A stretch of 64,000 bases of DNA from a virus. The notes beneath the pieces were generated by a model. That model ran no database searches and was not told the origin of the DNA. It saw only the letters and a list, made by a program, of their open reading frames with translations. The DNA lies in the IMG/VR virus record IMGVR_UViG_3300045988_023742, positions 32,001 to 96,000 of that record; one strand, written 5' to 3'. Below, piece after piece: positions 15,353 through 48,832 of the stretch; the stretch's first letter is position 1, and each line of letters starts with the position of its first letter. A program made the position numbers and the translations under genes.

Positions 15353-16077
15353 TTATACTTAGGATTATCAGGCTGTTCAGGATTTGTATTATCCCCATAC
15401 ACAGCCTTAAATTTTTCAAAATCACAGTACTTTATCTTGGTAATAACCCTCTCTCCGTTTCTAAACCTAAGACCACAGGTAGTTCTAAGAACTAAGCCCT
15501 CTGCATTAAGGTCTTTATCTTCAGAAATCTTAGACTTAAAGCCTTTCTTAACAAACTCTACAGCCTGTGGAATAGTCATATAGCCAATAAGAGGAACCAT
15601 AGGTACATTACATTTCTTAGCAATATCTTCACAGTCTTCTCTTTTAAGCCACCAGTCATTAATCTTGACATCAAAAAGAATGAAATCTACATCCTTGCTT
15701 ATATACTTTCCACCACACTTTTGAATGCCTGCACCATAGCCTTCACCATATATACATACAGTATCTTCAGGTGTCAATACAGGAAATACTTTAGCCCAGT
15801 CTACCTTGAAGAAAATACTTTCAAGCTTCTTAACAAGCTTACTAGGAAGCTCTGCTCTATTAGTTCGACCCTTGATAGTCACACCATAAATCCAAGGTTC
15901 TTTACCTTCTCCTGCTACCATAGTTACATAGATTCTGATGTTAGTGCCATCAATCTTCTCTGTACATTCCCAAAGGCAATCCTTTAAATAACTGAACTCT
16001 TCACAAGTATACTGTGAGGGAATAATAACATTCTTACCATCCCTCTTGAATAATGTATTAATTTTCTGATATTCCAT
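15349..16077 (-). CDS. ATP-dependent RNA ligase (Rnl2/Rnl5-like nucleotidyltransferase)
   Basis: Motif I KIDGTN (ligase KxDGxx), YGEGYGAGIQ, motif IV AEGLVLR, motif V ITKIKY. The N-terminal KINTLFKRD is typical of the RNA_ligase family. Confidence 0.75.
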   Translation of the reverse strand: MEYQKINTLFKRDGKNVIIPSQYTCEEFSYLKDCLWECTEKIDGTNIRIYVTMVAGEGKEPWIYGVTIKGRTNRAELPSKLVKKLESIFFKVDWAKVFPVLTPEDTVCIYGEGYGAGIQKCGGKYISKDVDFILFDVKINDWWLKREDCEDIAKKCNVPMVPLIGYMTIPQAVEFVKKGFKSKISEDKDLNAEGLVLRTTCGLRFRNGERVITKIKYCDFEKFKAVYGDNTNPEQPDNPKYK

Positions 16078-24724: not shown

Positions 24725-25402
24725 TTAAAACTTTTCTTCTTTAAACCACTCTATCCTTTCTCCATAAAGGTCATAGAGTATTTTATTTATATCCTTCCAT
24801 ATATGATAAGGCATCTTTTTGTTTGTTCTTGCAAAGTATGCAGGATGTTCAATCTTGAGCACATAATTGTTCTTACTGATATAAGGCTCTAATATCTGAG
24901 CTTGACTACCAAATAAAACATAGATAATTCCTGGATTAATCATTGACATCTGCTTTAAGAAAGCAATCATAAAGGGTCTCCATTTCATCATGTGAACACC
25001 TATCTTACCAACCTCTGTAGTCAATGCTGAATTAATCATAAGAATACCTTGTTTAGCCCAACTCTCTAAAGTGGGGTCAAAGGTAATCAAATTATGTGGA
25101 ATCTCAAAATTTATAACTGATTCTTTTATTATTTGTAAGGAAGGAGATAATTTATTTTCTGGAGTATCAGATGAATTACCAAATAGAACTCCCTGAGCCA
25201 CACCTCTTTGAGGATATGGGTCTTGACTTATAAAGACAACTCTACATTTATTATAAGAACAAAGCTTGAATGCTTTAAACACATCTTTTATTGATGGGCA
25301 TAGAGTAGATTGATTAATATTTCTTAACCAACCCATTATCTTCATAGTTTCATTTCTATCTAGTACTTTCATCCAATCTCCAAAATACTCATCTATTGTC
25401 AT
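24725..25402 (-). CDS. Uracil-DNA glycosylase
   Basis: VVFISQDPYP (GQDPY water-activating loop), GVLFGN, and HPAYFA near the C-terminus (the HPSP position). Confidence 0.75.
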   Translation of the reverse strand: MTIDEYFGDWMKVLDRNETMKIMGWLRNINQSTLCPSIKDVFKAFKLCSYNKCRVVFISQDPYPQRGVAQGVLFGNSSDTPENKLSPSLQIIKESVINFEIPHNLITFDPTLESWAKQGILMINSALTTEVGKIGVHMMKWRPFMIAFLKQMSMINPGIIYVLFGSQAQILEPYISKNNYVLKIEHPAYFARTNKKMPYHIWKDINKILYDLYGERIEWFKEEKF

Positions 25403-26361
25403 AGTTCCCTACATACAATACACTCCTTGGCAATCTCAAGAAGCTTATCCTGTATGCTTTCAACTGTAATTCCAGGTATCTCAGGAATGTTAATCTTATA
25501 AGTAGAATCTTCCTTTGTTCCCATAGTACCTTCATAGATTACCTTAGTAACATAACTACAGTCAAAACCATCTTCTACATCCAATGGAATAACATTTGAT
25601 GTTTCATCATAATGTATAATATCCATAGGAAGATAAGCACAAGTTCTAAGCTTTCCATAATTATCATAAGGAGGAACAGCAACTACATCAGCAGGATTAA
25701 TAAGACAAGCTAATCCAGTATCACCATAGTAATTCTTCTTCAGCCATCCTCTACCTCCAATATGAAGTCCTGTACTACAAGTATTCTCTTGTACAGTATC
25801 ACACTTATCTCTGTCCATAGTAACCATCTCACCAATTCTAATCTTGAAAGTGTGAGAATGATGGTCAGTAAATACATTTTCCTCCTCTGTTTTATCTACA
25901 TTTCTGTAGCCAACAAAGAAACCACACCTTGAGATAGTCATACCATACTTCTGCAAGAACCAAAATAGATTCTTTCTACATCTTTCATCGGGATTAAGTG
26001 ACATAAGAGTCCAGAAGTTTCTATAAGTAGAAATCTTCAACTCATTATGCTCTTCCTCAGCCTTTATAATAGCTTTTGCAAGCTCTTCAGGCACAGAAAG
26101 ACAAGACACTTCTTCCCAATAAACAACATCACCTCTCATACTGAGGAGTTTAGACTTTTGTATCTTCTCAATTAGAGTCAAAGCATTATTATGTGACTCT
26201 ATGCTCTTTTGATATTCTGGGCATAGAAGCTTTAATACTTCTTCATCTGTTTGAGCTTCAACAACCTTCTTGAACTCATCTTCAGTAACTTCTTTCTCTA
26301 AGACTTCTCCATTTTCAAGAAAGACAGTGACTTTGTTGTCAATTTTAATTACTTTCTGCAT
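25399..26361 (-). CDS. Hypothetical protein, possibly the rIIB-like partner of the upstream ATPase
   Basis: 320 aa (T4 rIIB is about 312 aa). Translationally coupled to the 727-aa GHKL ATPase. The call rests on size and synteny only. Confidence 0.4.
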   Translation of the reverse strand: MQKVIKIDNKVTVFLENGEVLEKEVTEDEFKKVVEAQTDEEVLKLLCPEYQKSIESHNNALTLIEKIQKSKLLSMRGDVVYWEEVSCLSVPEELAKAIIKAEEEHNELKISTYRNFWTLMSLNPDERCRKNLFWFLQKYGMTISRCGFFVGYRNVDKTEEENVFTDHHSHTFKIRIGEMVTMDRDKCDTVQENTCSTGLHIGGRGWLKKNYYGDTGLACLINPADVVAVPPYDNYGKLRTCAYLPMDIIHYDETSNVIPLDVEDGFDCSYVTKVIYEGTMGTKEDSTYKINIPEIPGITVESIQDKLLEIAKECIVCREL

Positions 26362-28532
26362 AATACTCTTAAAAGTTTGTTGTTCTTTACTTTGTTATAT
26401 ATTTTAGGGTTAACCCTATAAGCTTTACTTCTAACTATAACTGCTGCCATAAGTAAACCTTTCAATGGTTCCTCTCCATCAATCTTAAGTTCAACTTCCT
26501 TACTAAGATTATTGTATATCTCAATATGGTCCTTAAACTTTTCACACATTGATTTAACATAAGGGTCTATCTTTGTGCATTTACTTGCAACTTCCATGTA
26601 AGTCCTGTTTTCACTATACTTATAATAGAAGTTAATTATGTCTTTGAATTTACTCTTTAATGGAGGAGGAACAGTGTTTAACATTTCAAAGCTACTATAA
26701 TTAGTTGGCATACCTACATCCTTGAAAGACTCAATTATGGTATGAAGCTTAACTATAGTAGGGTCTTCCTTTAATACCCAGTCTTTATTAACCAAGAATG
26801 TTGGCTTAAGCTCATGAAAAGCATCTATTATCTCTTTTCTAGCTCTAATAAATACAAATCCTCTAGCTTCTGCAATACTATACCAACTATCTGATTCCTT
26901 CATATCAGCAAGTATGACACCTTTCTTCAGGCTCTTTATATACTTTATACAGCAATCAATGTCCTTAAAGTATCTTCTTTCTCTATACTCAGGACTTTTC
27001 TGAATGTACAATATAAAGTCTTTAATCTTAACTACAGGTATCTTATTGGACTTTAATTCTTCTTTATAAGCTAAAAACTCAGTATTTGTATCTAAGTTTA
27101 TAATTTTTACTTTAGACATAATGTAATCATACATATAGCCTATAAGTATATCCTTAGATGGATAAAACTTCAAGTTTATGATATTAGCTTCTATATAACT
27201 TGTAAACTGAGTCTTATCAAAGCTTGTAATTATAGTATATTCGTCATAGTTCTCTTGTAGCCAAGACTTAGCTGCTGCTGTTAATCTAGGACTATCAATT
27301 AAAATAATTGAAGCTTCTCCCATCTTTGTTCTATCTTGTGCATTAAATGGAATCTTGTTTTGATAGAATCTATCATTATAGAATAGTCCCTTAAAGTTAG
27401 GGAGTTCCATACCAAAGAAAGAACTAAGAAAGTTCTTACAATCTCTGAGAATTGTAGAACCCTTGAATGTTAGAGTACTAGAATCAACAATAGAGCAATA
27501 GCCTTTTACTCCATAATAAGAATATACTCTGATAGGATAATAGGAATCATCCAAGGGATTATAACATATCTTGTTTGATGTTACTTTATAGTATTCATAA
27601 AGATTGTCATAGTCTTTACTGAATTTATTGCTTATCATAGCATCCAGTTCATTCCTAGCTGCTTTGATTCTGTCTTCTATTTTGCTTATTGTATCACTTG
27701 AATAAATAATACTTTCTCTATTAGGAGTAATACTTATTTCTCCAACATTAAACTTGATTACAATTCCTGAAGATTCTATATTATTCAAGAAATCCTTTGA
27801 TGCAACAGACAAGAGTCTAGTATTACAAGGATAGAGTATATTACCTAAAAGAATCTTAGTGTCTATAGACTCTGAAGCTACAGCGAAGTTATTGAATCTT
27901 TTAAGTTTAGTGTTATTTACTTTATTATCAATACCATCAACATAAACATTAGGAAAGAAAACTATATACTTTAAAGCTTTCTTATATGGGTCTATATTAG
28001 ATATGTTCTTGATAGTTACTTCAACACCATTCTTTTCTTCTGTTGGCTTCTCCATTACTAAGTTAGTGGTAATTGTATTTCCACTCTTAACCATAACATA
28101 GAGAAATGCTGTACCTTCATAGTAAGAAGTTATATATACTGTATTAGTACAAGCTAAACTTGAGTACTTTCCAATACCAAAACCTCCAATGAACTCATTA
28201 CTTTCTCTCTTAGTACTACTTCCAATATTGCAATAGACTTCTTGGAATCTCTCTGGGCTAAGACCTGTACCAAAATCTCTAATAGTTACTTCCCAACCAT
28301 TATTACCTTTCTTAAATCTGACAATAACAGGGGTATCTGTTGTTCCTGCTTCTACATGACTATCCCAAGCATTACTAACAATCTCTCTAATGAATGATTG
28401 CTCTGGGTCAGAATATAAGTTAGATGATAACAATGTGGTAATAAACTCAAGATTCTTTGGGTCTATTGAGGTCTTAAATTCTCGGATGTCTCCTAAAACT
28501 TTTATATTACCTTTATCTGCATTTATTATCAT
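26349..28532 (-). CDS. GHKL-family ATPase (rIIA-like)
   Basis: Bergerat-fold motifs: N box EIVSNAWDS, G1 IRDFGTGLS, G2 GGFGIGKYS. 727 aa, close to T4 rIIA (about 725 aa). Confidence 0.7.
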   Translation of the reverse strand: MIINADKGNIKVLGDIREFKTSIDPKNLEFITTLLSSNLYSDPEQSFIREIVSNAWDSHVEAGTTDTPVIVRFKKGNNGWEVTIRDFGTGLSPERFQEVYCNIGSSTKRESNEFIGGFGIGKYSSLACTNTVYITSYYEGTAFLYVMVKSGNTITTNLVMEKPTEEKNGVEVTIKNISNIDPYKKALKYIVFFPNVYVDGIDNKVNNTKLKRFNNFAVASESIDTKILLGNILYPCNTRLLSVASKDFLNNIESSGIVIKFNVGEISITPNRESIIYSSDTISKIEDRIKAARNELDAMISNKFSKDYDNLYEYYKVTSNKICYNPLDDSYYPIRVYSYYGVKGYCSIVDSSTLTFKGSTILRDCKNFLSSFFGMELPNFKGLFYNDRFYQNKIPFNAQDRTKMGEASIILIDSPRLTAAAKSWLQENYDEYTIITSFDKTQFTSYIEANIINLKFYPSKDILIGYMYDYIMSKVKIINLDTNTEFLAYKEELKSNKIPVVKIKDFILYIQKSPEYRERRYFKDIDCCIKYIKSLKKGVILADMKESDSWYSIAEARGFVFIRARKEIIDAFHELKPTFLVNKDWVLKEDPTIVKLHTIIESFKDVGMPTNYSSFEMLNTVPPPLKSKFKDIINFYYKYSENRTYMEVASKCTKIDPYVKSMCEKFKDHIEIYNNLSKEVELKIDGEEPLKGLLMAAVIVRSKAYRVNPKIYNKVKNNKLLRVLCRK

Positions 28533-37960: not shown

Positions 37961-38010
37961 AATTTTGTTTATTAAAATTAATATGAAATTAATAAATGTT
38001 TTCTAAAAAT

Positions 38011-38122
38011 AGCTACTTAATTGATACATTTGAAGTGTATTGCATTAACCACTATGCTAATTATCCATTCAGAAGAATAATATAGGACTTGAACCTATGA
38101 AATAATAGTATTGTAAGTAGCT
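38011..38122 (-). tRNA. Circularly permuted tRNA gene, anticodon UCA (opal suppressor type)
   Basis: Minus strand order: stem half AGCTACT, TACAATACTATTATTTC, then the 3' half ATAGG-TTCAAGT-CCTAT-ATTATTC (38074-38098), an 8-nt linker, then the 5' half GGATAAT-TA-GCAT-AGTGGTTA-ATGC-A-ATACA-CTTCAAA-TGTAT-CAATT (38019-38066), A, and stem half AGTAGCT. The acceptor halves pair 7/7 (one G-U). Confidence 0.6.
38107..38122 (-). repeat. Stem+TACAAYAYT element, copy g
   Basis: Minus strand AGCTACT-TACAATACT. The partner AGTAGCT lies at 38011-38017, on the far side of the permuted tRNA. Confidence 0.7.
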
Positions 38123-38126
38123 GAAG

Positions 38127-38252
38127 TAAGGCAGAGAAGAATCGAACTTCTGTTACAGGTACTAAATTTTTATTAATATAAATTAGTATTGTAAGTATCA
38201 TTAGATACTAATATTATTATAACCTGTGTCCTGACCACTAGACGACTGCCTT
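38127..38252 (-). tRNA. Glu-family tRNA gene interrupted by a 61-nt segment between the anticodon-stem strands
   Basis: 5' part AAGGCAG-TC-GTCT-AGTGGTCA-GGAC-A-CAGGT (38222-38252). 3' part ACCTG-TAAC-AGAAG-TTCGATT-CTTCT-CTGCCTT-A (38127-38160). 61 nt lie between them (38161-38221) instead of a 7-nt loop, and they carry the conserved hairpin + TACAATACT element. Confidence 0.6.
38185..38209 (-). repeat. Stem+TACAAYAYT element, copy f (local hairpin)
   Basis: Minus strand AGTATC-TAAT-GATACT-TACAATACT, inside the interrupted Glu-family tRNA. Confidence 0.7.
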
Positions 38253-38272
38253 ATGAAATTGGCACTATTCTT

Positions 38273-38346
38273 TATGCACTGATGGGATTGAACCATCTCT
38301 GATTGTACCAAAAAACAATTGTCCTAACCAATTAGACTAAACGCAA
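38273..38346 (-). tRNA. tRNA-Gln(UUG)-like with an apparent 8-nt anticodon loop
   Basis: TTGCGTT-TA-GTCT-AATTGGTTA-GGAC-A-ATTGT-TTTTTGGT-ACAAT-CAGA-GATGG-TTCAATC-CCATC-AGTGCAT-A. Flanked by the covarying stem TTGGCACT / AGTGCCAA. Confidence 0.6.
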
Positions 38347-38351
38347 AATTT

Positions 38352-38368
38352 ACTATTGTAAGTGCCAA
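38352..38368 (-). repeat. Stem+TACAAYAYT element, copy e
   Basis: Minus strand TTGGCACT-TACAATAGT. The partner AGTGCCAA lies at 38259-38266, just 3' of the tRNA. Confidence 0.7.
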
Positions 38369-38372
38369 AAAG

Positions 38373-38483
38373 TGGGGAAGGTAGGACTCGAACCTACATA
38401 GTGATAGTTTATGAAACCTATTGCTTATTGATTTAGTATTGTAAGTATCTAAGATACTATTAAACCATTTTAGCTACTTCCCC
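38373..38483 (-). tRNA. tRNA-like gene interrupted after the D arm (contains a TTCATAA, CAU-type loop)
   Basis: Perfect acceptor GGGGAAG/CTTCCCC, D arm GCTA-AAATGGTTTAA-TAGT and T arm GTAGG-TTCGAGT-CCTAC. About 55 nt lie between the D and T arms, including AGTATC-TTA-GATACT-TACAATACT. Confidence 0.45.
38435..38458 (-). repeat. Stem+TACAAYAYT element, copy d (local hairpin)
   Basis: Minus strand AGTATC-TTA-GATACT-TACAATACT, inside the second interrupted tRNA-like gene. Confidence 0.7.
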
Positions 38484-38500
38484 TTGTATAGTCACTATTT

Positions 38501-38573
38501 ATATACATGTTAGAATCGAACTAACTACACTTGAATTACAAATTCAATGCTCTACCAAATGAGCTAATGCTAT
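38501..38573 (-). tRNA. tRNA-Thr(UGU), imperfect acceptor stem
   Basis: ATAGCAT-TA-GCTC-ATTTGGTA-GAGC-A-TTGAA-TTTGTAA-TTCAA-GTGTA-GTTAG-TTCGATT-CTAAC-ATGTATA. The acceptor pairs fully only if one A is bulged. Flanking stem AGTCACT / AGTGACT. Confidence 0.6.
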
Positions 38574-38574
38574 T

Positions 38575-38590
38575 AGTATTGTAAGTGACT
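38575..38590 (-). repeat. Stem+TACAAYAYT element, copy c
   Basis: Minus strand AGTCACT-TACAATACT. The partner AGTGACT lies at 38490-38496. Confidence 0.7.
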
Positions 38591-38612
38591 GAATATCTGT
38601 AGACACTAAATT

Positions 38613-38686
38613 ATCACATTGTTGGAATCGAACCAACTACTATCTGCTTAAAAGGCTGATGCTCTAACCAAATGAGCTAAATGTTA
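38613..38686 (-). tRNA. tRNA-Lys(UUU)
   Basis: TAACATT-TA-GCTC-ATTTGGTTA-GAGC-A-TCAGC-CTTTTAA-GCAGA-TAGTA-GTTGG-TTCGATT-CCAAC-AATGTGA. Flanking stem TAGACACT / AGTGTCTA. Confidence 0.65.
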
Positions 38687-38690
38687 TAAT

Positions 38691-38707
38691 AATATTGTAA
38701 GTGTCTA
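38691..38707 (-). repeat. Stem+TACAAYAYT element, copy b
   Basis: Minus strand TAGACACT-TACAATATT. The partner AGTGTCTA lies at 38600-38607. Confidence 0.7.
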
Positions 38708-38712
38708 ATGGT

Positions 38713-38743
38713 GAATGTAGGAGGTCTCTCTCCTCCTACATTC
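38713..38743 (-). other. Perfect 12-bp hairpin (terminator or structured RNA)
   Basis: GAATGTAGGAGG-7 nt-CCTCCTACATTC. No U-tract follows it on the minus strand. Confidence 0.5.
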
Positions 38744-38800
38744 TATTGATACTTGTTGTTGAACATTAATACGCTATTCTAATCTATGAAATACAGTTAT

Positions 38801-38815
38801 AATGTTGTAAGTATC
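38801..38815 (-). repeat. Stem+TACAAYAYT element, copy a
   Basis: Minus strand GATACT-TACAACATT, right after the stop of the vWA gene. A possible partner AGTATC lies at 38748-38753. Confidence 0.55.
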
Positions 38816-38824
38816 ATTAGGTCC

Positions 38825-40648
38825 TTAAAGGACATTTTCTCTCACTATGTCATATCTATTACTCCTGAACAATGACTGTAAAGGAGTATAAACATCCATA
38901 ATATCCATATCTTTGAAGTTAGTTAAGAACTGCTCAATCTGTGCTACATTAGCAGGGATATAAATCATGTTCTCAATACCTTCAAATCTGTTGATAGAAG
39001 CACTTCTGAAGCCCCAATCACCATCTACATCAATAGCTACAATATATGGCTTAAATCCAAAGTATCTTTGACACTTCATCATAAAGTCATTCATTGAAGC
39101 TTCAGGAGACCACAATGAGTTCCACTCACCATCACTGATGATAGTCCATACAGGATAGTTCTTCAGAGCATCAAGTATCTGAGGGTTATTCTGACACTCC
39201 CTATGCAAATCATCAGGTATTTTACTTATGTTAGTACCACCACCTTGGAATACTGCATTACAGAAGTTCCTAATAGATTGATAGTTCTCACAGAAGCTCT
39301 TCTTAGGGTCAACAAAAGGAGTCTGCTTTACCTTTACTGTTTCACTTCTGATGAAAGAGTTTACAGAGTTATTCTTTCTGTCTATACAAGTATGCCAATG
39401 ACTATTAGTATTGAAGAAACCAAGTAAGTTTCTACCATCATCATCTGGGTTCTTACATAAACATACAGAAGCTAAGAATGTAGCAAAGTTGAAAGGTTTA
39501 CCTCTCATAGAACCTGAATCATCTATGATTACAAGACTATTATAAGGAAGATTGACCTTAGTCATGAAGGTTTCAAGCTTTAGCTCATCTACATTGTCAT
39601 TACAGATGTCATTATATAGCTCTTTGAAATTAGTAGCTCCTGTATTGACCTTAGCCTGCTTTGCAACTTTCTTCAACTTGATTTTATCCTCTTCTGTAGC
39701 TTGCCCCTGTCTAACTTTTTCCTCTAGAACTCTCTGTTCCTCTTGTTTAGACTCCTTGTACTTCTCCCATTCAGTGAGCCAAGGCTGGAACTTAGAATAT
39801 TTATCCTTCTCAGTATCTTTAATCTTACTGTAAAGGATTCTATTCTTAACTCTAAACCTTGCCTGTGAAGGAAGCTTGTCAAACCAATCAATAAATGATT
39901 GTTTGTCAAACTCATTGATTTTACCTGTAGAGAATAGTACTGACTCAAGGTCACCATTGTAATCCTTTCTCCACTTCCTATAGTCCTTGAAGTTAGCATA
40001 GTTCTCATTTACTTCATACTCCCAACCCATAAGTTCTGAGAGCATTATAAGCAACTTAACCTTATCTTCCATTACCTTTTTAGTCTCAGGAAGCATCTTG
40101 CTATGACCACTTCTTTTGCTTACTCTAGGAAGTGTCAAGAATTTAGCAACAAGAGTTTTATTGAAAGGATTATTACCATTGATAACCTTATAGAGATAGC
40201 TTGCAATAACCTCCCTATATTTTGCCTCAGCAAAGAGATTATGTATTCTAATAACTCTAGAGCCTTTAGTCTGTACTCTATTTCTGAACAGCAAATCAAA
40301 GCAAGTATATTCATTGAATAAACCTGCTTCAAGGAACTTCACAAATTGAGCTTGATGCTTATTCCACATCCAATCAAGAACTACTTGGAAACCTTCTCTA
40401 TTGGCATTACCACCACTATCCTTCTTAACACCCTTAAAGATGTTATGCTGTCTAGCTGTAATATCACCAATTGAGAAAAGTAAACTAAAGAACATTTGCT
40501 TATGTTCTTTATTTCCTCGAACTTCTGACCAGCAAGCATCAAGTAATGATGCATCAATTGTGTTGCCTACACTCTGAAAGAGTTTAAGGCAATTTCTTAA
40601 TCCATAAAAAGGATTATCGTTACTTTTGTTTAACTTTACCTGTACCAT
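38825..40648 (-). CDS. von Willebrand factor A domain protein (DUF2828-like; helical N-terminal region + C-terminal vWA)
   Basis: MIDAS motif VIIDDSGSM (DxSxS) in the C-terminal half. The long helical N-terminal region with LLFSIGDITARQ resembles DUF2828-type phage/eukaryote proteins. Confidence 0.7.
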   Translation of the reverse strand: MVQVKLNKSNDNPFYGLRNCLKLFQSVGNTIDASLLDACWSEVRGNKEHKQMFFSLLFSIGDITARQHNIFKGVKKDSGGNANREGFQVVLDWMWNKHQAQFVKFLEAGLFNEYTCFDLLFRNRVQTKGSRVIRIHNLFAEAKYREVIASYLYKVINGNNPFNKTLVAKFLTLPRVSKRSGHSKMLPETKKVMEDKVKLLIMLSELMGWEYEVNENYANFKDYRKWRKDYNGDLESVLFSTGKINEFDKQSFIDWFDKLPSQARFRVKNRILYSKIKDTEKDKYSKFQPWLTEWEKYKESKQEEQRVLEEKVRQGQATEEDKIKLKKVAKQAKVNTGATNFKELYNDICNDNVDELKLETFMTKVNLPYNSLVIIDDSGSMRGKPFNFATFLASVCLCKNPDDDGRNLLGFFNTNSHWHTCIDRKNNSVNSFIRSETVKVKQTPFVDPKKSFCENYQSIRNFCNAVFQGGGTNISKIPDDLHRECQNNPQILDALKNYPVWTIISDGEWNSLWSPEASMNDFMMKCQRYFGFKPYIVAIDVDGDWGFRSASINRFEGIENMIYIPANVAQIEQFLTNFKDMDIMDVYTPLQSLFRSNRYDIVRENVL

Positions 40649-40671
40649 TCTGCTAATGTTTTATTTTATTT

Positions 40672-40689
40672 TTGTAAGTAACGTAGTTA
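40672..40689 (-). repeat. Stem+TACAA element, copy h, upstream of a protein gene
   Basis: Minus strand TAAC-TAC-GTTACT-TACAAAAAT. The ACTTACAA core ends about 23 nt upstream of the ATG at 40648. Confidence 0.5.
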
Positions 40690-42705: not shown

Positions 42706-42743
42706 ACTCTTGTTTGCTTTATTATTCTTATTTCTTGTTTTTG

Positions 42744-42815
42744 TGCCCTTAGTAAGACTCGAACTTACATTCCAAGTTTAGGAAACTTGTGCTCTATCCA
42801 TTGAACTATAAGGAC
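42744..42815 (-). tRNA. tRNA-Arg(CCU)
   Basis: GTCCTTA-TA-GTTC-AATGGATA-GAGC-A-CAAGT-TTCCTAA-ACTTG-GAAT-GTAAG-TTCGAGT-CTTAC-TAAGGGC-A. Confidence 0.8.
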
Positions 42816-42946
42816 AGTTGGGGCTTTTTATTCTTCAAGTGTGTGCCCTCTTCTATTCCTTCTTCACACTTATGGCTATAGAAGTAACTAGCTAGCTTAG
42901 TACTTTAGATTCACCATACTCTTTACACTTTGCAACCCTCAAAGTG

Positions 42947-43126
42947 TCAGTTAGAAAACAATGCTATTACATCTTCAAAAGTATATTCAACCTTATTTAA
43001 ATCTAGTGATTTAGTAGGTTTAATAACCTTTGAAGACTCTTTATTGTATTCTCTAGCAACAACATCAACCTCTTCATCTAATAAAGAATGGTTTATTGCA
43101 AAGTAATATAGTTCTTTAATTGTCAT
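42947..43126 (-). CDS. Small hypothetical protein (59 aa)
   Basis: Hand-translated MTIKELYYFAINHSLLDEEVDVVAREYNKESSKVIKPTKSLDLNKVEYTFEDVIALFSN. Followed by the hairpin CACTTTG-7 nt-CAAAGTG. Confidence 0.4.
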   Translation of the reverse strand: MTIKELYYFAINHSLLDEEVDVVAREYNKESSKVIKPTKSLDLNKVEYTFEDVIALFSN

Positions 43127-43141
43127 AACTATTAACTTTTG

Positions 43142-43215
43142 TGCATCCAGTGAGACTCGAACTCACAACCCACAGCTTAGAAGGCTGTTGCTCTAATCCA
43201 TTGAGCTATGGATGC
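43142..43215 (-). tRNA. tRNA-Arg(UCU)
   Basis: GCATCCA-TA-GCTC-AATGGATTA-GAGC-A-ACAGC-CTTCTAA-GCTGT-GGGTT-GTGAG-TTCGAGT-CTCAC-TGGATGC-A. Confidence 0.85.
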
Positions 43216-43280
43216 TTCAATTAGATTATTTCTAAACCATGTATGTTACAGTATTTATCAGCTAGCTCTCTTAATGCAAG

Positions 43281-43354
43281 TGGGTCAATAGGGACTTGAA
43301 CCCTAAACCTTCACATTATGAGTGTGCTGCTCTAACCACTTGAGCTATAGACCC
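43281..43354 (-). tRNA. tRNA-Met/Ile2(CAU)
   Basis: GGGTCTA-TA-GCTC-AAGTGGTTA-GAGC-A-GCACA-CTCATAA-TGTGA-AGGTT-TAGGG-TTCAAGT-CCCTA-TTGACCC-A. Confidence 0.8.
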
Positions 43355-46154: not shown

Positions 46155-46226
46155 TGCCTCTTAGTGTAATGGTTAGCACACAAGTTTTTGGCACTTAGAG
46201 TAGGGGTTCAAATCCTCTAGGGGCAA
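46155..46226 (+). tRNA. tRNA-Gln(UUG)
   Basis: TGCCTCT-TA-GTGT-AATGGTTA-GCAC-A-CAAGT-TTTTGGC-ACTTA-GAGT-AGGGG-TTCAAAT-CCTCT-AGGGGCA-A. Confidence 0.75.
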
Positions 46227-46299
46227 CTAGAAAGTTAGTTGTTTGTTTGTTGTTTATATTGATTAACCTCCTTAATCTGTGAAGATGAAAGAGGTGCAT

Positions 46300-46371
46300 A
46301 GAGCTATCATCTAGTGGTAAGGATGCAAGGTTTTCAACCTTGTCACAGGGGTTCAAATCCCCTTGGCTCTA
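46300..46371 (+). tRNA. tRNA-Glu(UUC)
   Basis: AGAGCTA-TC-ATCT-AGTGGTAA-GGAT-G-CAAGG-TTTTCAA-CCTTG-TCAC-AGGGG-TTCAAAT-CCCCT-TGGCTCT-A. Confidence 0.85.
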
Positions 46372-46377
46372 CTATAT

Positions 46378-46450
46378 AGGCTATGTGGTGTGATGGTTTG
46401 CATATCACACTGTCAATGTGAATGATAGGGTTCAATTCCCTCATAGTCTG
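46378..46450 (+). tRNA. tRNA-Asp(GUC)
   Basis: Anticodon arm TCACA-CTGTCAA-TGTGA, T loop TTCAATT, acceptor GGCTATG/CATAGTC. The ends are uncertain by 1-2 nt. Confidence 0.7.
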
Positions 46451-46454
46451 CAAT

Positions 46455-46545
46455 GGAGGTTTAAGCCTAATTGGTAAGGCAGTAGTCCTGAAAACTACTA
46501 GTAATCACTAATAGTGATGTGCAAGTTCGAGTCTTGTAGCCTCCT
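46455..46545 (+). tRNA. tRNA-Ser(UGA), long variable arm
   Basis: GGAGGTT...GTAGT-CCTGAAA-ACTAC, long variable arm, GCAAG-TTCGAGT-CTTGT-AGCCTCC-T. Confidence 0.8.
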
Positions 46546-46549
46546 CAAT

Positions 46550-46633
46550 GGAGAGTAAATCCTAGAGGTCTAGGAACCAATCTGCTAAATTGTGTGCTAA
46601 TTAATAAGTGTATTTCGAGTATACTTCTCTCCG
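46550..46633 (+). tRNA. tRNA-Ser(GCU), long variable arm
   Basis: GGAGAGT...CCAAT-CTGCTAA-ATTGT, long variable arm, T loop TTCGAGT, 3' TCTCTCC-G. Confidence 0.7.
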
Positions 46634-46640
46634 CTTTAAT

Positions 46641-46713
46641 ATAGTAGTAATGCAATAGGTAGCATACTGCATTTGGGATGCAGTAGTTGTAGGTTCAAGT
46701 CATATCTACTATA
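46641..46713 (+). tRNA. tRNA-Pro(UGG)
   Basis: ATAGTAG-TA-ATGC-AATAGGTA-GCAT-A-CTGCA-TTTGGGA-TGCAG...TTCAAGT...CTACTAT-A. Confidence 0.75.
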
Positions 46714-46717
46714 CTAT

Positions 46718-46791
46718 GGGGCAAGTGATGTAATTGGCTAACATACTTCCTTTGCAAGGAAGAATTAAGGGTTCAAGTCCCTCTTGCTCCA
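46718..46791 (+). tRNA. tRNA-Ala(UGC)
   Basis: GGGGCAA...CTTCC-TTTGCAA-GGAAG...TTCAAGT...TTGCTCC-A. The G3:U70 alanine identity pair is present. Confidence 0.85.
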
Positions 46792-46851
46792 CACTAACTA
46801 TAGTGATAGTTAAGTTGATAATTCACATTATTAACTCTAAATTATATTGAT

Positions 46852-46956
46852 ATGAAAAAGATTTTATCTTTAATTAAGAAAGGTGTAAATGCTTATTTAA
46901 ATGCTTTGGCTAAATGTCCTTACACACCATCAGGAACTATTCCAGTAGGAATCTAG
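46852..46956 (+). CDS. Very small ORF (34 aa) inside the tRNA array
   Basis: MKKILSLIKKGVNAYLNALAKCPYTPSGTIPVGI. The only ATG-initiated ORF I noticed in a 200-nt gap of the array. It ends in a GGAACT..AGTTCC hairpin. Confidence 0.2.
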   Translation: MKKILSLIKKGVNAYLNALAKCPYTPSGTIPVGI

Positions 46957-46991
46957 TTCCTTTGATGTAGAGTTGATAATATAATATATTT

Positions 46992-47065
46992 GGGTCCTTA
47001 GCTCAATAGGTTAGAGCAATTGACTGTTAATCAATAGGTTGTGGGTTCAAGTCCCACAGGTCCCG
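46992..47065 (+). tRNA. tRNA-Asn(GUU)
   Basis: GGGTCCT-TA-GCTC-AATAGGTTA-GAGC-A-ATTGA-CTGTTAA-TCAAT-AGGTT-GTGGG-TTCAAGT-CCCAC-AGGTCCC-G. Confidence 0.85.
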
Positions 47066-47072
47066 CATAAAT

Positions 47073-47144
47073 GGGTAGATAGTTTAATGGTAAAACCCTA
47101 GTCTCCAAAACTAGAAGATGTGAGTTCGAGTCTTACTCTATCTG
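47073..47144 (+). tRNA. tRNA-Trp(CCA)
   Basis: GGGTAGA-TA-GTTT-AATGGTA-AAAC-C-CTAGT-CTCCAAA-ACTAG...TTCGAGT...TCTATCT-G. Confidence 0.8.
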
Positions 47145-47148
47145 CAAT

Positions 47149-47221
47149 GGGAAAGTAGCAAAGATGGTCTATGCAGAGGACTGAAAATCCTTGGATGTAA
47201 GTTAGATTCTTACCTTTCCCA
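47149..47221 (+). tRNA. tRNA-Phe(GAA)
   Basis: GGGAAAG...GAGGA-CTGAAAA-TCCTT-GGATG-TAAG... T loop TTAGATT ...CTTTCCC-A. Confidence 0.8.
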
Positions 47222-47226
47222 CATAA

Positions 47227-47300
47227 GGGTATATAACTCAGTTGGTTAGAGTACTTGACTGATATTCAAGAAGTCATAGGTTCAAATCCTATTATACCCA
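47227..47300 (+). tRNA. tRNA-Ile(GAU)
   Basis: GGGTATA-TA-ACTC-AGTTGGTTA-GAGT-A-CTTGA-CTGATAT-TCAAG-AAGTC-ATAGG-TTCAAAT-CCTAT-TATACCC-A. Confidence 0.85.
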
Positions 47301-47302
47301 CT

Positions 47303-47375
47303 GTGTTAGTAGCTCAATTGGCAGAGCAAAGGTTTGTGGTTCCTTAGGTTGTGGGTTCAAATCCCATCTAACACC
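47303..47375 (+). tRNA. tRNA-His(GUG)
   Basis: GTGTTAG-TA-GCTC-AATTGGCA-GAGC...TTGTGGT loop...GTGGG-TTCAAAT-CCCAT-CTAACAC-C. Confidence 0.8.
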
Positions 47376-47394
47376 CTAATTATGTATATATAAT

Positions 47395-47700
47395 ATGGTA
47401 GTAACAGACAACACTATAATAGAATCAGCTACTCCAAAGTATCCTGAATTAATGAGTTCAGATGCTGAAGATAAGCTAAAGAAAGCTTTCTACAATCTAA
47501 GAGAAAGTAAATCTAAACTATCTAAACTTCGTATGGAAGTAATAGAATTAGAGACAAAAGTTAAGAAAGAAGAAGAGTCATATAGGAATATATCTGACCT
47601 ATTTGAAATAACATTTGCTAAGAAAGAAATACAAGAAATAAAGAATACAGTTAATATGGGGATTATTAATCCAAGTGACTATAGAAATACTAATATATAA
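47395..47700 (+). CDS. Hypothetical coiled-coil protein
   Basis: 101-aa ORF between the two tRNA arrays. Confidence 0.55.
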   Translation: MVVTDNTIIESATPKYPELMSSDAEDKLKKAFYNLRESKSKLSKLRMEVIELETKVKKEEESYRNISDLFEITFAKKEIQEIKNTVNMGIINPSDYRNTNI

Positions 47701-47701
47701 T

Positions 47702-47932
47702 ATGTGGTTATTGGAAAGTAATAGACCTAAACATCTACTCTATGCAATACCTTCAGCCTTCATAGGTACTATATTATTCAGTACTGGTTTAGCTTTTGGT
47801 ATGGAGTTTAAAGACAAACAATATGGTGGTAAGTTTGATTGGATTGATATAGCTGCCACAGAAATAGGTGGATTAATAGGTCAATCTTTGCAGATTATCT
47901 TTATTCTAGTACTAAAGAATCTACTAGTATAA
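47702..47932 (+). CDS. Small membrane protein
   Basis: The start MWLLES sits right after the upstream TAA. Two TM helices. Confidence 0.5.
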   Translation: MWLLESNRPKHLLYAIPSAFIGTILFSTGLAFGMEFKDKQYGGKFDWIDIAATEIGGLIGQSLQIIFILVLKNLLV

Positions 47933-47940
47933 ATAATGAT

Positions 47941-48026
47941 GCCTCCATGTTGGAATAGGTATACAAGAGGCACTTAAAATGCCTTGAGCAGTAATGCTCA
48001 TGTGGGTTCAAGTCCCACTGGAGGTA
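47941..48026 (+). tRNA. tRNA-Leu(UAA), long variable arm
   Basis: GCCTCCA...AGGCA-CTTAAAA-TGCCT, variable arm TGAGCAGTAATGCTCA, GTGGG-TTCAAGT-CCCAC-TGGAGGT-A. Confidence 0.8.
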
Positions 48027-48031
48027 CTTAT

Positions 48032-48103
48032 GCTTCCTTAGTTCAATGGATAGAACAAGACACTTCTAATGTTTAAATGAAAGTTCGATTCTTTCAGGAA
48101 GTA
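48032..48103 (+). tRNA. tRNA-Arg(UCU)
   Basis: GCTTCCT-TA-GTTC-AATGGATA-GAAC-A-AGACA-CTTCTAA-TGTTT-AAAT-GAAAG-TTCGATT-CTTTC-AGGAAGT-A. Confidence 0.85.
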
Positions 48104-48239
48104 CCTAATAAAGCTATAAATTCTAGAATAATGTAGCAACGTAACTCTTAGGGTTTCTGAGTATAAAATACTTGTAGAGTAAGACTAGTCCCTTTTGGAT
48201 GTCGTAGAATCCACCTTTAGCCAAGGGAGTTGGCTATAT

Positions 48240-48321
48240 ACCCTCTTGATGGAATGGTAGACATAAAGGTCTTAGAAGCCTTGACCATAATGGTGTAAGA
48301 GTTCGAGTCTCTTAGGGGGTA
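48240..48321 (+). tRNA. tRNA-Leu(UAG), long variable arm
   Basis: ACCCTCT...AAGGT-CTTAGAA-GCCTT, variable arm, AAGAG-TTCGAGT-CTCTT-AGGGGGT-A. Confidence 0.7.
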
Positions 48322-48352
48322 CTAAAAATAATTGTAAAAAGTTGCTAAAAAG

Positions 48353-48384
48353 TTTGGTAGTTTCAAATAAATTGCTTACCTTTG
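48353..48384 (+). promoter_or_regulatory. Bacteroidota-type promoter (second copy of the cassette)
   Basis: TTTGgtagtttcaaataaattgctTACCTTTG. The upstream aaaaagttgctaaaaag also matches the 46.09-kb copy. Confidence 0.65.
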
Positions 48385-48398
48385 CAACTGTTAAAGAT

Positions 48399-48471
48399 GG
48401 TCTTTTAGTATAAAGGTTTAGTATCCTTGCTTTGTAACCAAGGGATGTAAGTTCGAGTCTTACAGGGACCT
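48399..48471 (+). tRNA. tRNA-Thr(UGU)
   Basis: GGTCTTT-TA-GTAT-AAAGGTTTA-GTAT-C-CTTGC-TTTGTAA-CCAAG-GGAT-GTAAG-TTCGAGT-CTTAC-AGGGACC-T (C31:C39 mismatch). Confidence 0.7.
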
Positions 48472-48473
48472 CT

Positions 48474-48548
48474 ACTATAAAATAGATTGTATAGGTTAAT
48501 GCGGTAATATCTATACACTCTATGCCTACTGGAGAACTATTTTATAGT
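48474..48548 (+). ncRNA. Candidate 75-nt structured RNA (three-way junction)
   Basis: 12-bp closing stem ACTATAAAATAG / CTATTTTATAGT enclosing the hairpins TGTATAG..CTATACA (7 bp) and CTCT..GGAG. It does not fold as a tRNA. Confidence 0.3.
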
Positions 48549-48564
48549 TTATTGTAGGCTATAT

Positions 48565-48637
48565 ACAGGGATGTTAGCAGTGGTAGCTAGTTAGCCTCAT
48601 AAGCTAAAGGTCGTGGGTTCGACTCCCACTCCCTGAA
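48565..48637 (+). tRNA. tRNA-Met(CAU)
   Basis: D arm TAGC-AGTGGTA-GCTA, anticodon arm TTAGC-CTCATAA-GCTAA, T arm GTGGG-TTCGACT-CCCAC, 3' TCCCTGA. The 5' end is uncertain by 1 nt. Confidence 0.75.
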
Positions 48638-48832
48638 GACTTACATAGAAAGAACCTCCACGTGGTGTAAGTTGGGTAATGCTAATCTTTCTAGTTTAAT
48701 TCTCAAAAGAATGAAACATGGGGTACATATATCAAATGGATATGCAAAAACCCTTAATGGAGGAGTTAGACAGAAAATAAGTAGGTGTGCTAAGGGAAAA
48801 CTGAAAACTGCTTATAAATTTATTTGGAAGAT
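48638..48832 (+). mobile_element. About 195-nt insertion bounded by a 17-nt duplication of the tRNA-Met 3' end; homing-endonuclease remnant
   Basis: GACTCCCACTCCCTGAA occurs at 48621-48637 and again at 48833-48849. The interior encodes a NUMOD/IENR-like DNA-binding tail. Confidence 0.45.

Follow-up and report, generated by a model that had tools for sequence, protein, structure and literature searches.

A circularly permuted, tRNA-shaped RNA gene beside a divergent Ro60 homolog in a crAss-like phage: a candidate Y RNA of the YrlA type

Circularly permuted tRNA genes, in which the 3' half lies upstream of the 5' half across a short linker, are described from Cyanidioschyzon merolae, some green algae and Thermofilum pendens, and tandem duplication is their accepted origin. 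The C. merolae and Thermofilum genes rely on a bulge-helix-bulge (BHB), a splicing endonuclease and a ligase, by way of a circular intermediate. In archaea and red algae, it is the co-occurrence of flanking, intronic and permuted forms that defines the BHB/EndA system; we know of no EndA in a bacterial host. A permuted tRNA-like gene also gives rise to the two-piece tmRNA (permuted ssrA) of alpha-proteobacteria and cyanobacteria, which is functional without ligation. Modules of Ro60 and Y RNA are known from bacteria and a few phages, and the role of the tRNA-like end of the bacterial Y RNA YrlA is, to our knowledge, still open.

YrlA genes share the strand of the Ro60 gene, from which they are no more than 4 kb away, and have a conserved motif close to the 5' end; in M. 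smegmatis, YrlA is cut in vivo by RNase P and receives a CCA end, which leaves two fragments (PMC4201824, Chen et al. 2014). Phage pairs of Ro60 and Y RNA include that of the Thermus phage phiLo (PMC12135203). The stop-codon-recoded crAss-like and Lak phages encode suppressor tRNAs, some of them with HDV-like theta ribozymes (PMC10879173).

The locus described here lies in the window (the whole 64-kb stretch of DNA that was analysed) of a crAss-like phage. As in the YrlA/Ro60 systems of Salmonella, M. smegmatis, mycobacteriophages and phiLo, the RNA lies less than 1 kb from a Ro60 homolog on the same strand, and several such RNAs occur per locus. Its 5' and 3' ends pair in a stem, a conserved motif lies near the 5' end, and the modules follow in the YrlA order of T arm, loop-closed acceptor stem and D arm. 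As in the permuted genes of C. merolae and Thermofilum, a canonical cloverleaf is restored from the two halves, the unit's ends pair together, and intron-containing tRNAs with the same junction element lie alongside; unlike there, the host is a bacterium, the break falls in the variable region, the anticodon varies, and where they have the BHB there is only a plain helix bearing a sequence motif. The two-piece tmRNA shares the permuted tRNA-like gene, the excised linker from the CCA end to the 5' end and the two base-paired chains, which are predicted here, whereas its tag reading frame and pseudoknots have no counterpart. The suppressor tRNAs of recoded phages likewise carry a stop-complementary anticodon within a tRNA cluster of crAss-like phages, yet those tRNAs are colinear and of the ordinary kind, in genomes that contain in-frame stops, while the present gene is permuted, with a variable anticodon and no recoding in the 64-kb window. 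In topology and context it agrees with YrlA-type Y RNAs, and not with the algal and archaeal permuted tRNAs.

The permuted unit and its homologs

The unit was read on the minus strand from 38122 to 38011, where a T arm and a 3' acceptor strand are followed by an 8-nt linker and then by a 5' acceptor strand, a D arm and an anticodon arm with the anticodon UCA. Its parts are as follows.

38122-38116, minus strand: closing strand X, the 5' strand, AGCTACT (AGCUACU), overlapping the conserved motif GNYACU
38115-38106, minus strand: single-stranded conserved tail TACAATACTA (also written UACAAUACUA), 3' of strand X
38098-38082, minus strand: T arm, ATAGG-TTCAAGT-CCTAT
38081-38075, minus strand: 3' acceptor strand, ATTATTC
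38074-38067, minus strand: linker TTCTGAAT from the tRNA 3' end to the 5' end, 8 nt, made up of the discriminator U and 7 nt
38066-38060, minus strand: 5' acceptor strand, GGATAAT
38057-38042, minus strand: D arm, GCAT-AGTGGTTA-ATGC, with G18G19 and G15 present
38040-38024, minus strand: anticodon arm, ATACA-CTTCAAA-TGTAT, with the anticodon TCA (UCA) at 38033-38031
38017-38011, minus strand: closing strand Y, the 3' strand, AGTAGCT (AGUAGCU), partner of strand X

Every segment quoted in the earlier note on this DNA, which had proposed a circularly permuted opal suppressor tRNA gene, was found at its coordinates on the minus strand, and the pairings that it had described held. The acceptor strands GGATAAT and ATTATTC pair at 7/7 positions with one G-U, and strand X pairs 7/7 with 38011-38017, or over 9 bp when the next two pairs are counted. 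Strand X and the tail together form the cassette signature ACTTACAATACTA, and the C at 38099, beside the T arm, takes the role of nucleotide 48. The minimum free energy structure obtained with RNAfold for 38126-38008 of the minus strand comprised the proposed AGCTACT/AGTAGCT closing stem (9 bp), the T hairpin, the acceptor hairpin, the D arm and the anticodon arm, at -22.7 kcal/mol (z = -2.65). All of the tRNA hallmarks were present, namely U8, G18G19, a TTCRANY T loop, a 7-nt CU-NNN-AA loop, a 7-bp acceptor and R15:Y48. The paired termini form an uninterrupted helix of 7-9 bp without 3-nt bulges, and no BHB was seen there.

A pattern scan for a T arm, then a 7/7 acceptor across a linker of 2-12 nt, then a D arm returned one site in the 64-kb window, which was this unit, against 0.005 per simulated 64-kb window (1/200), making the arrangement ∼200-fold rarer by chance. 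The expectation that standard finders would overlook the gene was borne out: ARAGORN did not report it in the window, and the Rfam tRNA model saw the 5' piece only, as a T-armless match of 31.5 bits at 38010-38066. After in-silico rejoining, ARAGORN called a tRNA with a score of 115. At gathering and permissive thresholds, Rfam gave tRNA matches only, with no Y_RNA, YrlA, HDV-like or other ribozyme, and neither ARAGORN nor Rfam matched tmRNA or tmRNA_permuted at this site. A theta (HDV-like) ribozyme beside the unit, as seen by phage suppressor tRNAs (PMC10879173), was considered and rejected, having neither sequence nor Rfam support.

Homologous permuted units, 13-14 of them distinct, were identified in related crAss-like phages (L numbers below) whose Ro60-like protein is 49-98% identical. 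Pairing was retained at 98/98 positions of the closing helix, 70/70 of the T, 95/98 of the acceptor, 50/50 of the D and 69/70 of the anticodon helix, compared with 0.40-0.83 for mismatched partners, and all five helices were kept by covariation across 13 homologous units. The Levitt pair N15:N48 (R15:Y48), which spans the two gene pieces, covaried or matched in 13/13 units. Once rejoined, 13/13 units were called as tRNAs with scores of 105-119. Several linkers of the relatives begin with N-CCA (GCCA in L004, L021 and L023, TCCA in L013, ACCA in L017). The pieces are not decayed fragments of two tRNAs, an outcome that the earlier note had named as fatal to its proposal, because 14 distinct acceptor helices among the relatives pair at 95/98 positions (0.68 when mismatched) and N15:N48 covaries throughout. 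The permuted tRNA-shaped gene, with its break in the variable region, proved genuine and selected.

The cassette array and the neighbouring gene

The permuted unit was found to be the seventh and last cassette of an array that immediately follows a 607-aa gene on the same strand, starting 9 nt past the stop codon of that gene. The two ends of each cassette pair with one another in a covarying helix of 7-8 bp that brackets it, and the 5' strand of this helix carries the conserved motif (W)GNYACU-UACAA, the UACAA being unpaired. The other cassettes and the associated features are listed below.

38825-40648, minus strand: divergent Ro60 homolog, 607 aa, TROVE and vWA with a DxSGS MIDAS motif
40618-40683, minus strand: helix CGUUACU (40683-40677) / AGUAACG (40624-40618) with a UACAA tail, of the same type as the cassette helices
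38747-38816, minus strand: cassette 1, helix TGAUACU/AGUAUCA around a 56-nt non-tRNA cargo
38600-38707, minus strand: cassette 2, helix UAGACACU/AGUGUCUA around an ordinary tRNA-Lys(UUU) at 38613-38686
38490-38590, minus strand: cassette 3, helix AGUCACU/AGUGACU around a tRNA-Thr(UGU) at 38502-38573
38373-38483, minus strand: cassette 4, a tRNA(CAU) into which the local hairpin form of the element (AGUAUCU 38458-38452 / AGAUACU 38450-38444) is inserted past the D loop, then the tail
38259-38368, minus strand: cassette 5, helix UUGGCACU/AGUGCCAA around a tRNA with an 8-nt anticodon loop at 38273-38346
38127-38252, minus strand: cassette 6, a tRNA-like gene with the hairpin form of the element (AGUAUC 38209-38204 / GAUACU 38199-38194) splitting its anticodon loop, then the tail and a spacer
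15349-16077, minus strand: phage RNA ligase, PF09414, 65.9 bits against a cut-off of 27

UACAA was invariant in 125 distinct motif instances, which were themselves selected on ACTTA[CT]AA, with G at -3 in 94% and Y at -1 in 98%. The helix reached at least 7 bp in 131/171 motif instances, compared with 40/171 when the 5' halves were swapped. The motif always lies on the coding strand and is restricted to the array beside the Ro60-like gene and to the start of that gene; it was absent from the other 20 tRNAs of the window and from all other genes and tRNA arrays there. A scan of 185,579 genomes for TACTTACAATACTA returned scattered single chance matches only. Within the helix at 40618-40683 lie the 5' UTR, the start codon (40648-40646) and codons one to nine of the Ro60-like gene. 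Covariation was seen for this helix in L005, L018, L020 and L022, and L158, a distant relative, has it too (TTCACT...AGTGAA); in L016, the motif runs straight into the start codon.

When the element was removed in silico from cassette 4 of L004, L008 and L009, the resulting tRNAs scored best of all (122-125), with the conserved AAGCA supplying the 3' strand of the D stem, which the AGU of the element overlaps. The splice sites of cassette 6 were ambiguous, and no consistent placement was found. Decay of the cargo was also observed in the array, cassette 5 of L002 being a remnant and cassette 2 being non-tRNA in L001-L003. The RNA ligase lies 22 kb from the array with no positional linkage, and could be an accessory only if RNA ends are joined.

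Several comparisons show that the 607-aa protein is a divergent Ro60 homolog; it is the putative partner of the cassette RNAs. PHROG 850 represents the Ro60 family, because Bxz1 gp220, which is TROVE and vWA_Ro60, matches it at 2.8e-140. It was matched by 13/16 members of the 607-aa family at up to 1e-5; P0244 did so at 2.6e-18 over residues 88-588, nearly its full length, and P0132 at 3e-10, while the window protein itself reached only E 5.6e-4. In Foldseek, a first AlphaFold2 model, built from 19 close sequences (pLDDT 72), returned nothing beyond vWA and HEAT noise. With a second model from a deeper alignment (pLDDT 82.5), the top PDB match was D. radiodurans Rsr (2NVO; E 5.5e-5, 627 aligned columns), the sole full-length match, at low TM-scores of 0.26-0.30. 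With hhalign, the vWA region aligned with the Ro60 vWA at 82% probability. Pfam and NCBIfam gave no TROVE or Ro60 match, HMMER against the PDB found nothing with either the single sequence or a profile, and tblastn against GenBank phages gave no match. The nucleotide likeness of the region to cr116_1 is limited to 61 bp.

Anticodon variation and the search for UGA recoding

The anticodon UCA sits in a canonical 7-nt loop, CUUCAAA, as the earlier note had read it. On the same scaffold, UCA, UUU, GUU, GUC and GAU were found among phages whose neighbouring protein is 91-98% identical. The variation among near-identical relatives was confined to the anticodon triplet and the linker, and within the anticodon arm to the triplet only. 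These five anticodons occurred over 11 contigs and the arm was absent in five more, a census that is small because the anticodon-arm scans of IMG/VR and metagenomes gave 10 contigs only. The arm was cleanly deleted in L001, L006, L007, L009 and L010. The arm-less versions are under purifying selection: when L020 6044 was compared with L026 7252, the structured part was identical and the spacers had diverged. A diversity-generating retroelement was considered as the source of the anticodon variation and rejected, since the window holds no second copy of the anticodon arm to act as a template.

The reading as a dedicated opal suppressor is not supported, given this exchange of anticodons among near-identical phages and the five deletions of the arm. 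Standard-code frames of at least 100 aa cover 54.1 of the 64 kb, TGA terminates 12 of the 46 long ORFs in the window, and reading TGA as a sense codon merged no large ORF. The search for in-frame TGA revealed no UGA recoding in the 64-kb window, which leaves the speculation about a read-through switch unsupported. The UCA triplet is most likely a passing state and not what the gene is for. Ordinary tRNAs elsewhere in the window already supply several of the sister-strain anticodons GUC, GUU and GAU. L003 is without the tRNA-Lys of cassette 2 and its permuted unit carries UUU, and L023 holds an ordinary cassette tRNA with UCA.

Possible roles of the cassette RNAs

The RNA is best explained by a context that the earlier note had missed, namely the adjacent Ro60 homolog and the six sister cassettes with the same closing helix. 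On balance, we lean towards the permuted unit being one of several tRNA-shaped Y RNAs of a divergent Ro60 in a crAss-like phage, and not a dedicated suppressor. Transcription of the array would accompany or follow that of the Ro60 gene, and every unit would then take the L-shape that its fold and conservation indicate. Judging from position, topology and co-occurrence, the Ro60-like protein may bind the helix and UACAA handle, and binding to the same handle around its own start codon could result in autoregulation. Host RNase P, together with 3' trimming or CCA addition, may then open the acceptor linker, the place where cleavage and trimming are predicted; this step is proposed because the relatives encode N-CCA linkers and M. 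smegmatis YrlA is so processed. The product would be a two-piece RNA in which the acceptor and closing helices, together with contacts between the D and T loops, hold the pieces to each other. Ligation is probably not required for maturation, which would result in a two-piece tRNA-like RNP. An obligatory route of cleavage and ligation, as suggested earlier, is not supported, given the missing BHB and the bacterial precedents, M. smegmatis YrlA and the two-piece tmRNA, that function as two pieces. Between strains, it is the exposed anticodon loop that changes fastest, so that the RNP most likely engages an anticodon-reading partner, candidates being the translation apparatus or a host tRNA-targeting factor.

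Several observations count against a Y RNA or set the locus apart from the known ones. The motif GNYACUUACAA is unlike the known Y RNA motifs, which read GNCGAA (GNCGAAN0-1G in full) or, in animals, GGUCCGA; the protein is too divergent for Pfam TROVE and comes with the weak PHROG 850 match and low Rsr TM-scores given above, and the Rfam Y_RNA and YrlA models gave no match at E <= 10 or E <= 1. Known YrlA RNAs have no anticodon arm, whereas many units here keep the full arm with a fast-changing anticodon, and up to seven cassettes stand in tandem. Unlike in YrlA, the stem also flanks complete tRNAs that occupy the same cassettes, brackets the start codon of the protein and interrupts two other tRNA genes in an intron-like manner, from which excision gives excellent tRNAs. 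Such an intron-like element fits a processing signal as well as a protein handle.

The unit could instead be a decoding-competent permuted tRNA that is aminoacylated and reads UGA here and Lys, Asn, Asp or Ile codons in the sister strains. Its mature form would be in two pieces or sealed in the variable region, with the closing helix merely holding or presenting the ends. The full set of tRNA hallmarks including R15:Y48, the N-CCA directly after the acceptor in five lineages and the RNA ligase encoded by the phage agree with this, as do the anticodon-only change, which resembles selection on decoding, the UUU unit of L003 and the ordinary UCA tRNA of L023. Against it, TGA is a frequent true stop and the 64 kb are not recoded, the anticodon arm is dispensable in several lineages that keep the remainder of the unit, the variable region would bear an open arm of 30-50 nt, and several of the sister anticodons are already supplied. 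We regard decoding as unlikely, and it is compatible with a Y RNA, not exclusive of it.

A quite unlikely alternative takes the helix and UACAA as a signal for processing or splicing that would function like the archaeal BHB, with a nuclease cutting there and a ligase joining the ends. It would account together for the leader-trailer helices around tRNAs, the intron-like insertions in two tRNAs and the permuted gene, the same three-way co-occurrence as in BHB/EndA, and it draws on the scores after excision from cassette 4, the overlap of the element with the D stem there and the PF09414 ligase in the genome. However, the helix is plain, 7-8 bp without bulges, no endonuclease candidate was identified, the ligase is distant, and the sites in cassette 6 cannot be placed consistently. 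Besides tRNAs, the element brackets non-tRNA cargos and the start codon of an mRNA, and its specific tie to the Ro60-like gene would be left unexplained.

It is highly improbable that ACTTACAATA acts as a promoter of the phage in which TACAAT forms the -10 box, the two pieces being separately transcribed halves of a split tRNA. The motif does end 0-4 nt upstream of three tRNA 5' ends and ∼20 nt upstream of the Ro60-like start codon, is on the coding strand without exception, and resembles a -10 hexamer. However, the variable bases that immediately precede ACT covary with a partner lying 40-115 nt downstream; these bases are therefore in the same RNA and transcription starts upstream of the motif, and the promoter reading was rejected on this covariation. 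There was also no conserved -35, sigma-70-like sites were not enriched, the motif is missing from the other genes and tRNA arrays of the window, and the L016 start codon follows it directly. That the two pieces are decaying, functionless remnants of a tandem tRNA duplication is hardly credible: tandem duplication and the cargo decay in the array would suit it, but phages whose protein identity falls to 49% still share the layout, their sequences differ, and every helix as well as the 15:48 pair shows compensatory changes. The variation is limited to anticodon and linker, and for practical purposes the comparisons have refuted this reading already.

Two more far-reaching readings are possible, though on the unlikely side. 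If the cassettes are aminoacylatable two-piece tRNAs delivered or shielded by the phage Ro60, their anticodons would be swapped rapidly under selection, and the RNAs could serve as decoys or replacements against host anticodon nucleases or reprogram decoding strain by strain, UGA and possibly UAA read-through included. If instead the helix and UACAA are a BHB-independent signal for cutting and joining tRNAs, a bacterial-virus system would generate both intron-containing and permuted tRNA genes.

With the cassettes read as Y RNAs of a divergent Ro60, the locus bears on Crassvirales, which are among the most abundant viruses of the human gut. In the literature searched, we found no description of a Ro60 and Y RNA module in Crassvirales, of a Ro60 so divergent that Pfam and NCBIfam models miss it, of up to seven cassettes per genome, or of a complete-tRNA mimic with the anticodon as its fastest-evolving part. 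As far as we know, bacterial viruses would gain here their first family of permuted genes that are fully tRNA-like. The tRNA finders miss or halve such genes, and censuses of phage tRNAs and suppressors are therefore biased. The variable anticodon further leads to a testable prediction, that the effector end of these Y RNAs would be read through the anticodon.

Structure, conservation and anticodons of the permuted unit

A permuted tRNA-shaped gene had been proposed for 38011-38122 in the earlier note, and the minus-strand sequence matched the described layout exactly. The unit, the seventh cassette of the array downstream of a 607-aa ORF, reads AGCTACT-TACAATACTATTATTTC-ATAGG-TTCAAGT-CCTAT-ATTATTC-TTCTGAAT from 38122 and continues with GGATAAT-TA-GCAT-AGTGGTTA-ATGC-A-ATACA-CTTCAAA-TGTAT-CAATTA-AGTAGCT, ending at 38011. 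At its minimum free energy (-22.7 kcal/mol, z = -2.65), the 119-nt RNA alone forms a closing stem of 9 bp, the T and acceptor hairpins, and the D and anticodon arms. ARAGORN called 21 tRNAs in the window, the permuted unit not being among them, and the Rfam tRNA model matched its 5' piece alone (31.5 bits), with the T arm scored as missing. A scan for a T arm, followed by a 7/7 acceptor over a 2-12 nt linker and then a D arm, found the unit as the sole match in the window; 1/200 simulated windows matched.

Through the 607-aa ORF, 26 related viral loci were gathered (protein identity 49-98%). The same permuted unit was present in the close relatives L002-L005 and L031-L036, and units of quite different sequence were carried by distant loci (L013, L014, L016, L017, L019, L020, L022, L023 and L026). 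Compensatory change keeps every helix across 14 permuted units; mismatched partners, used as the control, gave a paired fraction of 0.40-0.83.

Paired positions in the helices of 14 permuted units
Closing helix: 98/98
T helix: 70/70
Acceptor helix: 95/98 (14 distinct helices)
D helix: 50/50
Anticodon helix: 69/70

The tertiary Levitt pair (15:48), in which N15 of the downstream piece matches the nucleotide right before the T stem in the upstream piece, was found in 13/13 units (six G:C, seven A:U). After in-silico rejoining, all 13 were called as tRNAs by ARAGORN (scores 105-119), and none was called in native order. The preserved helices, the Levitt pair and the rejoined tRNA calls therefore exclude a reading of the unit as two decayed fragments, and the permuted tRNA-shaped gene is borne out by its fold, its conservation and its tertiary pair. 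Versions lacking the anticodon arm occurred in L001, L006, L007, L009, L010, L020 (at 6044) and L021 (at 5900); between the armless units of L020 and L026, the structured part was identical and the spacers had diverged. The linker starts with N-CCA in five lineages, which is consistent with exposure of a tRNA-like 3' end.

Variation of the permuted units is focused on the anticodon. When seven distinct units were aligned, the triplet and one D-loop indel made up all variation over the 45 nt that run from the D arm through the anticodon arm.

Anticodons of the permuted unit
UCA: window, L031
UUU: L003, L032
GUC: L004, L033-35
GUU: L002
GAU: L005, L036

Anticodon-only switching was also observed in cassette 4 (CAU in L008, UUU in L009 and L004) and in another permuted scaffold (CAA in L019, GAA in L020, GAG in L026). 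No second anticodon-arm copy usable as a mutagenesis template was found. This switching, together with the lack of visible UGA recoding within the 64-kb window, indicates that the UCA triplet represents one of the states of a rapidly changing site and does not reflect a conserved suppressor function. The timed opal-suppressor switch requiring ligation, on which the earlier note had speculated, is thus not supported: the window is without UGA recoding, the anticodon varies and a bulge-helix-bulge motif is absent. Anticodons that read stop codons are nonetheless seen again in the cassette family, one being the UCA (opal) of an ordinary cassette-flanked tRNA of L023 (749-821); other unusual anticodons in such tRNAs were AAU (L019, 6511-6583) and GGG (L020, 6463-6535).

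The cassette array and its closing helix

The 13-mer ACTTACAATACTA occurs in seven copies in 38106-38812 (minus strand) and once more at 40667-40679. Its core, ACTTACAA, was present in all related loci, on the coding strand, within the tRNA array and ~30 nt ahead of the 607-aa ORF. An AGT-led sequence 40-115 nt downstream pairs with the 4-5 bases preceding the ACT of the motif, giving the helix a consensus of (W)GNYACU-UACAA in its 5' strand and AGURNC in its 3' strand. Pairing of at least 7 bp was found in 131/171 instances, against 40/171 when 5' halves were swapped between instances. As the variable bases covary, the two strands necessarily lie on one RNA, which argues against the motif being a promoter only; sigma-70-like sites were also not enriched. 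The helix is a general feature of the array.

Arrangements of the helix in the window (coordinates of the tRNA gene or unit concerned; for the start codon, of the helix strands)
38613-38686, minus: encloses an ordinary tRNA-Lys
38502-38573, minus: encloses tRNA-Thr(UGU)
38483-38373, minus: hairpin form interrupting a tRNA gene after the D loop (cassette 4)
38273-38346, minus: encloses a tRNA with an 8-nt anticodon loop
38252-38127, minus: hairpin form interrupting a tRNA gene in the anticodon loop (cassette 6)
38122-38011, minus: encloses the permuted unit
40683-40677 with 40624-40618, minus: lies on both sides of the 607-aa ORF's start codon
One cassette of the window: encloses non-tRNA cargo

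The insert in cassettes 4 and 6 has the form AGUAUC-loop-GAUACU-UACAAUACUA plus a spacer. Its removal in silico from relatives of cassette 4 yielded tRNAs scoring 122-125 (Lys UUU or Met CAU). For cassette 6 of the window, the best excision gave anticodon UUA (ochre); relatives were ambiguous, and UUA was inconsistent among them. The ACTTACAA element was wholly absent from 20 other tRNA genes of the window (arrays 42743-43354, minus, and 46155-48638, plus), the motif being confined to the array and the start of the adjacent Ro60-like gene itself.

Several cargoes were unusual. The tRNA at 38272-38347 (minus) has the 8-nt anticodon loop UUUUUGGU, for which ARAGORN gives a 4-base anticodon 'tttg'; its L004 homolog is called as Gln UUG. 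The tRNA-Thr(UGU) has a one-nucleotide acceptor-stem defect (Rfam 51 bits, no ARAGORN call), and a second Thr(UGU) lies at 48399-48472, so the cassette tRNAs in part duplicate the ordinary set. Between cassettes of L004 (~5925-6072) we observed a ~150-nt tRNA-like gene with a long internal insertion (GCCTATCAT...GGGTTCGAATCCC...ATGATAGGCGCA), not called by ARAGORN. Upstream of the Ro60-like gene of L020, a tmRNA gene (2689-3201; Rfam 51.5 bits; ARAGORN tag VNIKKGLY*) is preceded by the cassette motif at 2573; the permuted-tmRNA model scored 43.3 bits on 2609-2825, slightly below threshold.

The neighbouring gene is a divergent Ro60 homolog

The 607-aa ORF (38825-40648, minus) lies just upstream of the array. 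Pfam and NCBIfam returned nothing except weak vWA matches; a DxSGSM MIDAS motif was visible in the family alignment. PHROG 850 ('RNA-binding protein') was matched by 13/16 family members, and this group is confirmed as the Ro60 family because Mycobacteriophage Bxz1 gp220, which carries TROVE and vWA_Ro60 (Pfam), matches it at 2.8e-140. Among distant members, P0244 (8.8e-20 against the family profile, hence in the family) matched PHROG 850 at 2.6e-18 over nearly its full length, and P0132 at 3e-10. In a profile-profile comparison with a Ro60 alignment, the vWA domain aligned over its entire length (82% probability, E 1e-5). Of two AlphaFold2 models, the first was of too low quality to use; the second, from 47 diverse sequences, reached pLDDT 82.5 and pTM 0.71. 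Its best PDB match, and sole full-length one, was D. radiodurans Rsr (2NVO; E 5.5e-5, 627 columns), with low TM-scores of 0.26-0.30. Together, these results show a divergent Ro60 homolog adjoining the array.

The start-codon helix of this gene (40618-40683, minus; CGUUACU/AGUAACG plus a UACAA tail) spans the 5' UTR, the start codon and the first nine codons. Compensatory changes were seen in L005, L018, L020 and L022, of which GAT to AAT in L005 alters the amino acid, and a version is present in the very distant relative L158. Judged from sequence, the helix looks like an autoregulatory operator. In L022 (5519-6757; also L024 and L026), a ~1.2 kb insertion, probably a self-splicing intron or intein, splits the Ro60-like ORF after the conserved ...WTIISD; it carries the gene of a 239-aa homing endonuclease of the LAGLIDADG type, and the C-terminal part of the ORF continues downstream of it.

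Relation to Y RNAs and a proposed maturation

YrlA Y RNAs are encoded on the same strand as Ro60, at most 4 kb away, with a stem formed by the paired ends, a conserved motif close to the 5' end that Ro60 contacts, and a tRNA-like domain of T arm, acceptor stem and D arm (PMC4201824). In M. smegmatis, RNase P cuts the 7-bp acceptor of YrlA and CCA is added in vivo, giving two fragments (PMC4201824). Pairs of Ro60 and Y RNA are known from phage (PMC12135203). The permuted unit shares the topology and genomic context of YrlA, and the anticodon-armless units are identical to YrlA in topology. However, the motif differs from that of known Y RNAs, the permuted unit has a complete anticodon arm and was not matched by the Rfam Y-RNA models, ordinary tRNAs share the cassettes, and some copies of the element are intron-like. 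In the literature searched, neither permuted tRNA genes nor Ro60 modules were described for crAss-like phages.

Maturation of the cassette RNAs by cleavage and ligation is possible, given that excision of the element in silico gives excellent tRNAs and that an RNA ligase gene (15349-16077, minus; 242 aa, PF09414, 65.9 bits) is present in the phage; against this, the bulge-helix-bulge motif is absent and no nuclease candidate was found. The ligase gene lies among nucleotide-metabolism genes (thymidylate synthase, DNA polymerase, dUTPase, NrdD/G), and rIIA- and rIIB-like genes (PHROG 612, 609) are located at 25399-28532 (minus) of this crAss-like genome.

The permuted unit and its array are best regarded as a Crassvirales variant of the Ro60 / YrlA Y-RNA system. 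The Ro60-like protein would bind the helix and UACAA handle and, through them, repress its own mRNA. RNase P, 3' trimming and CCA addition would open the linker to leave a two-piece RNP, whose anticodon end would engage an anticodon-reading partner.
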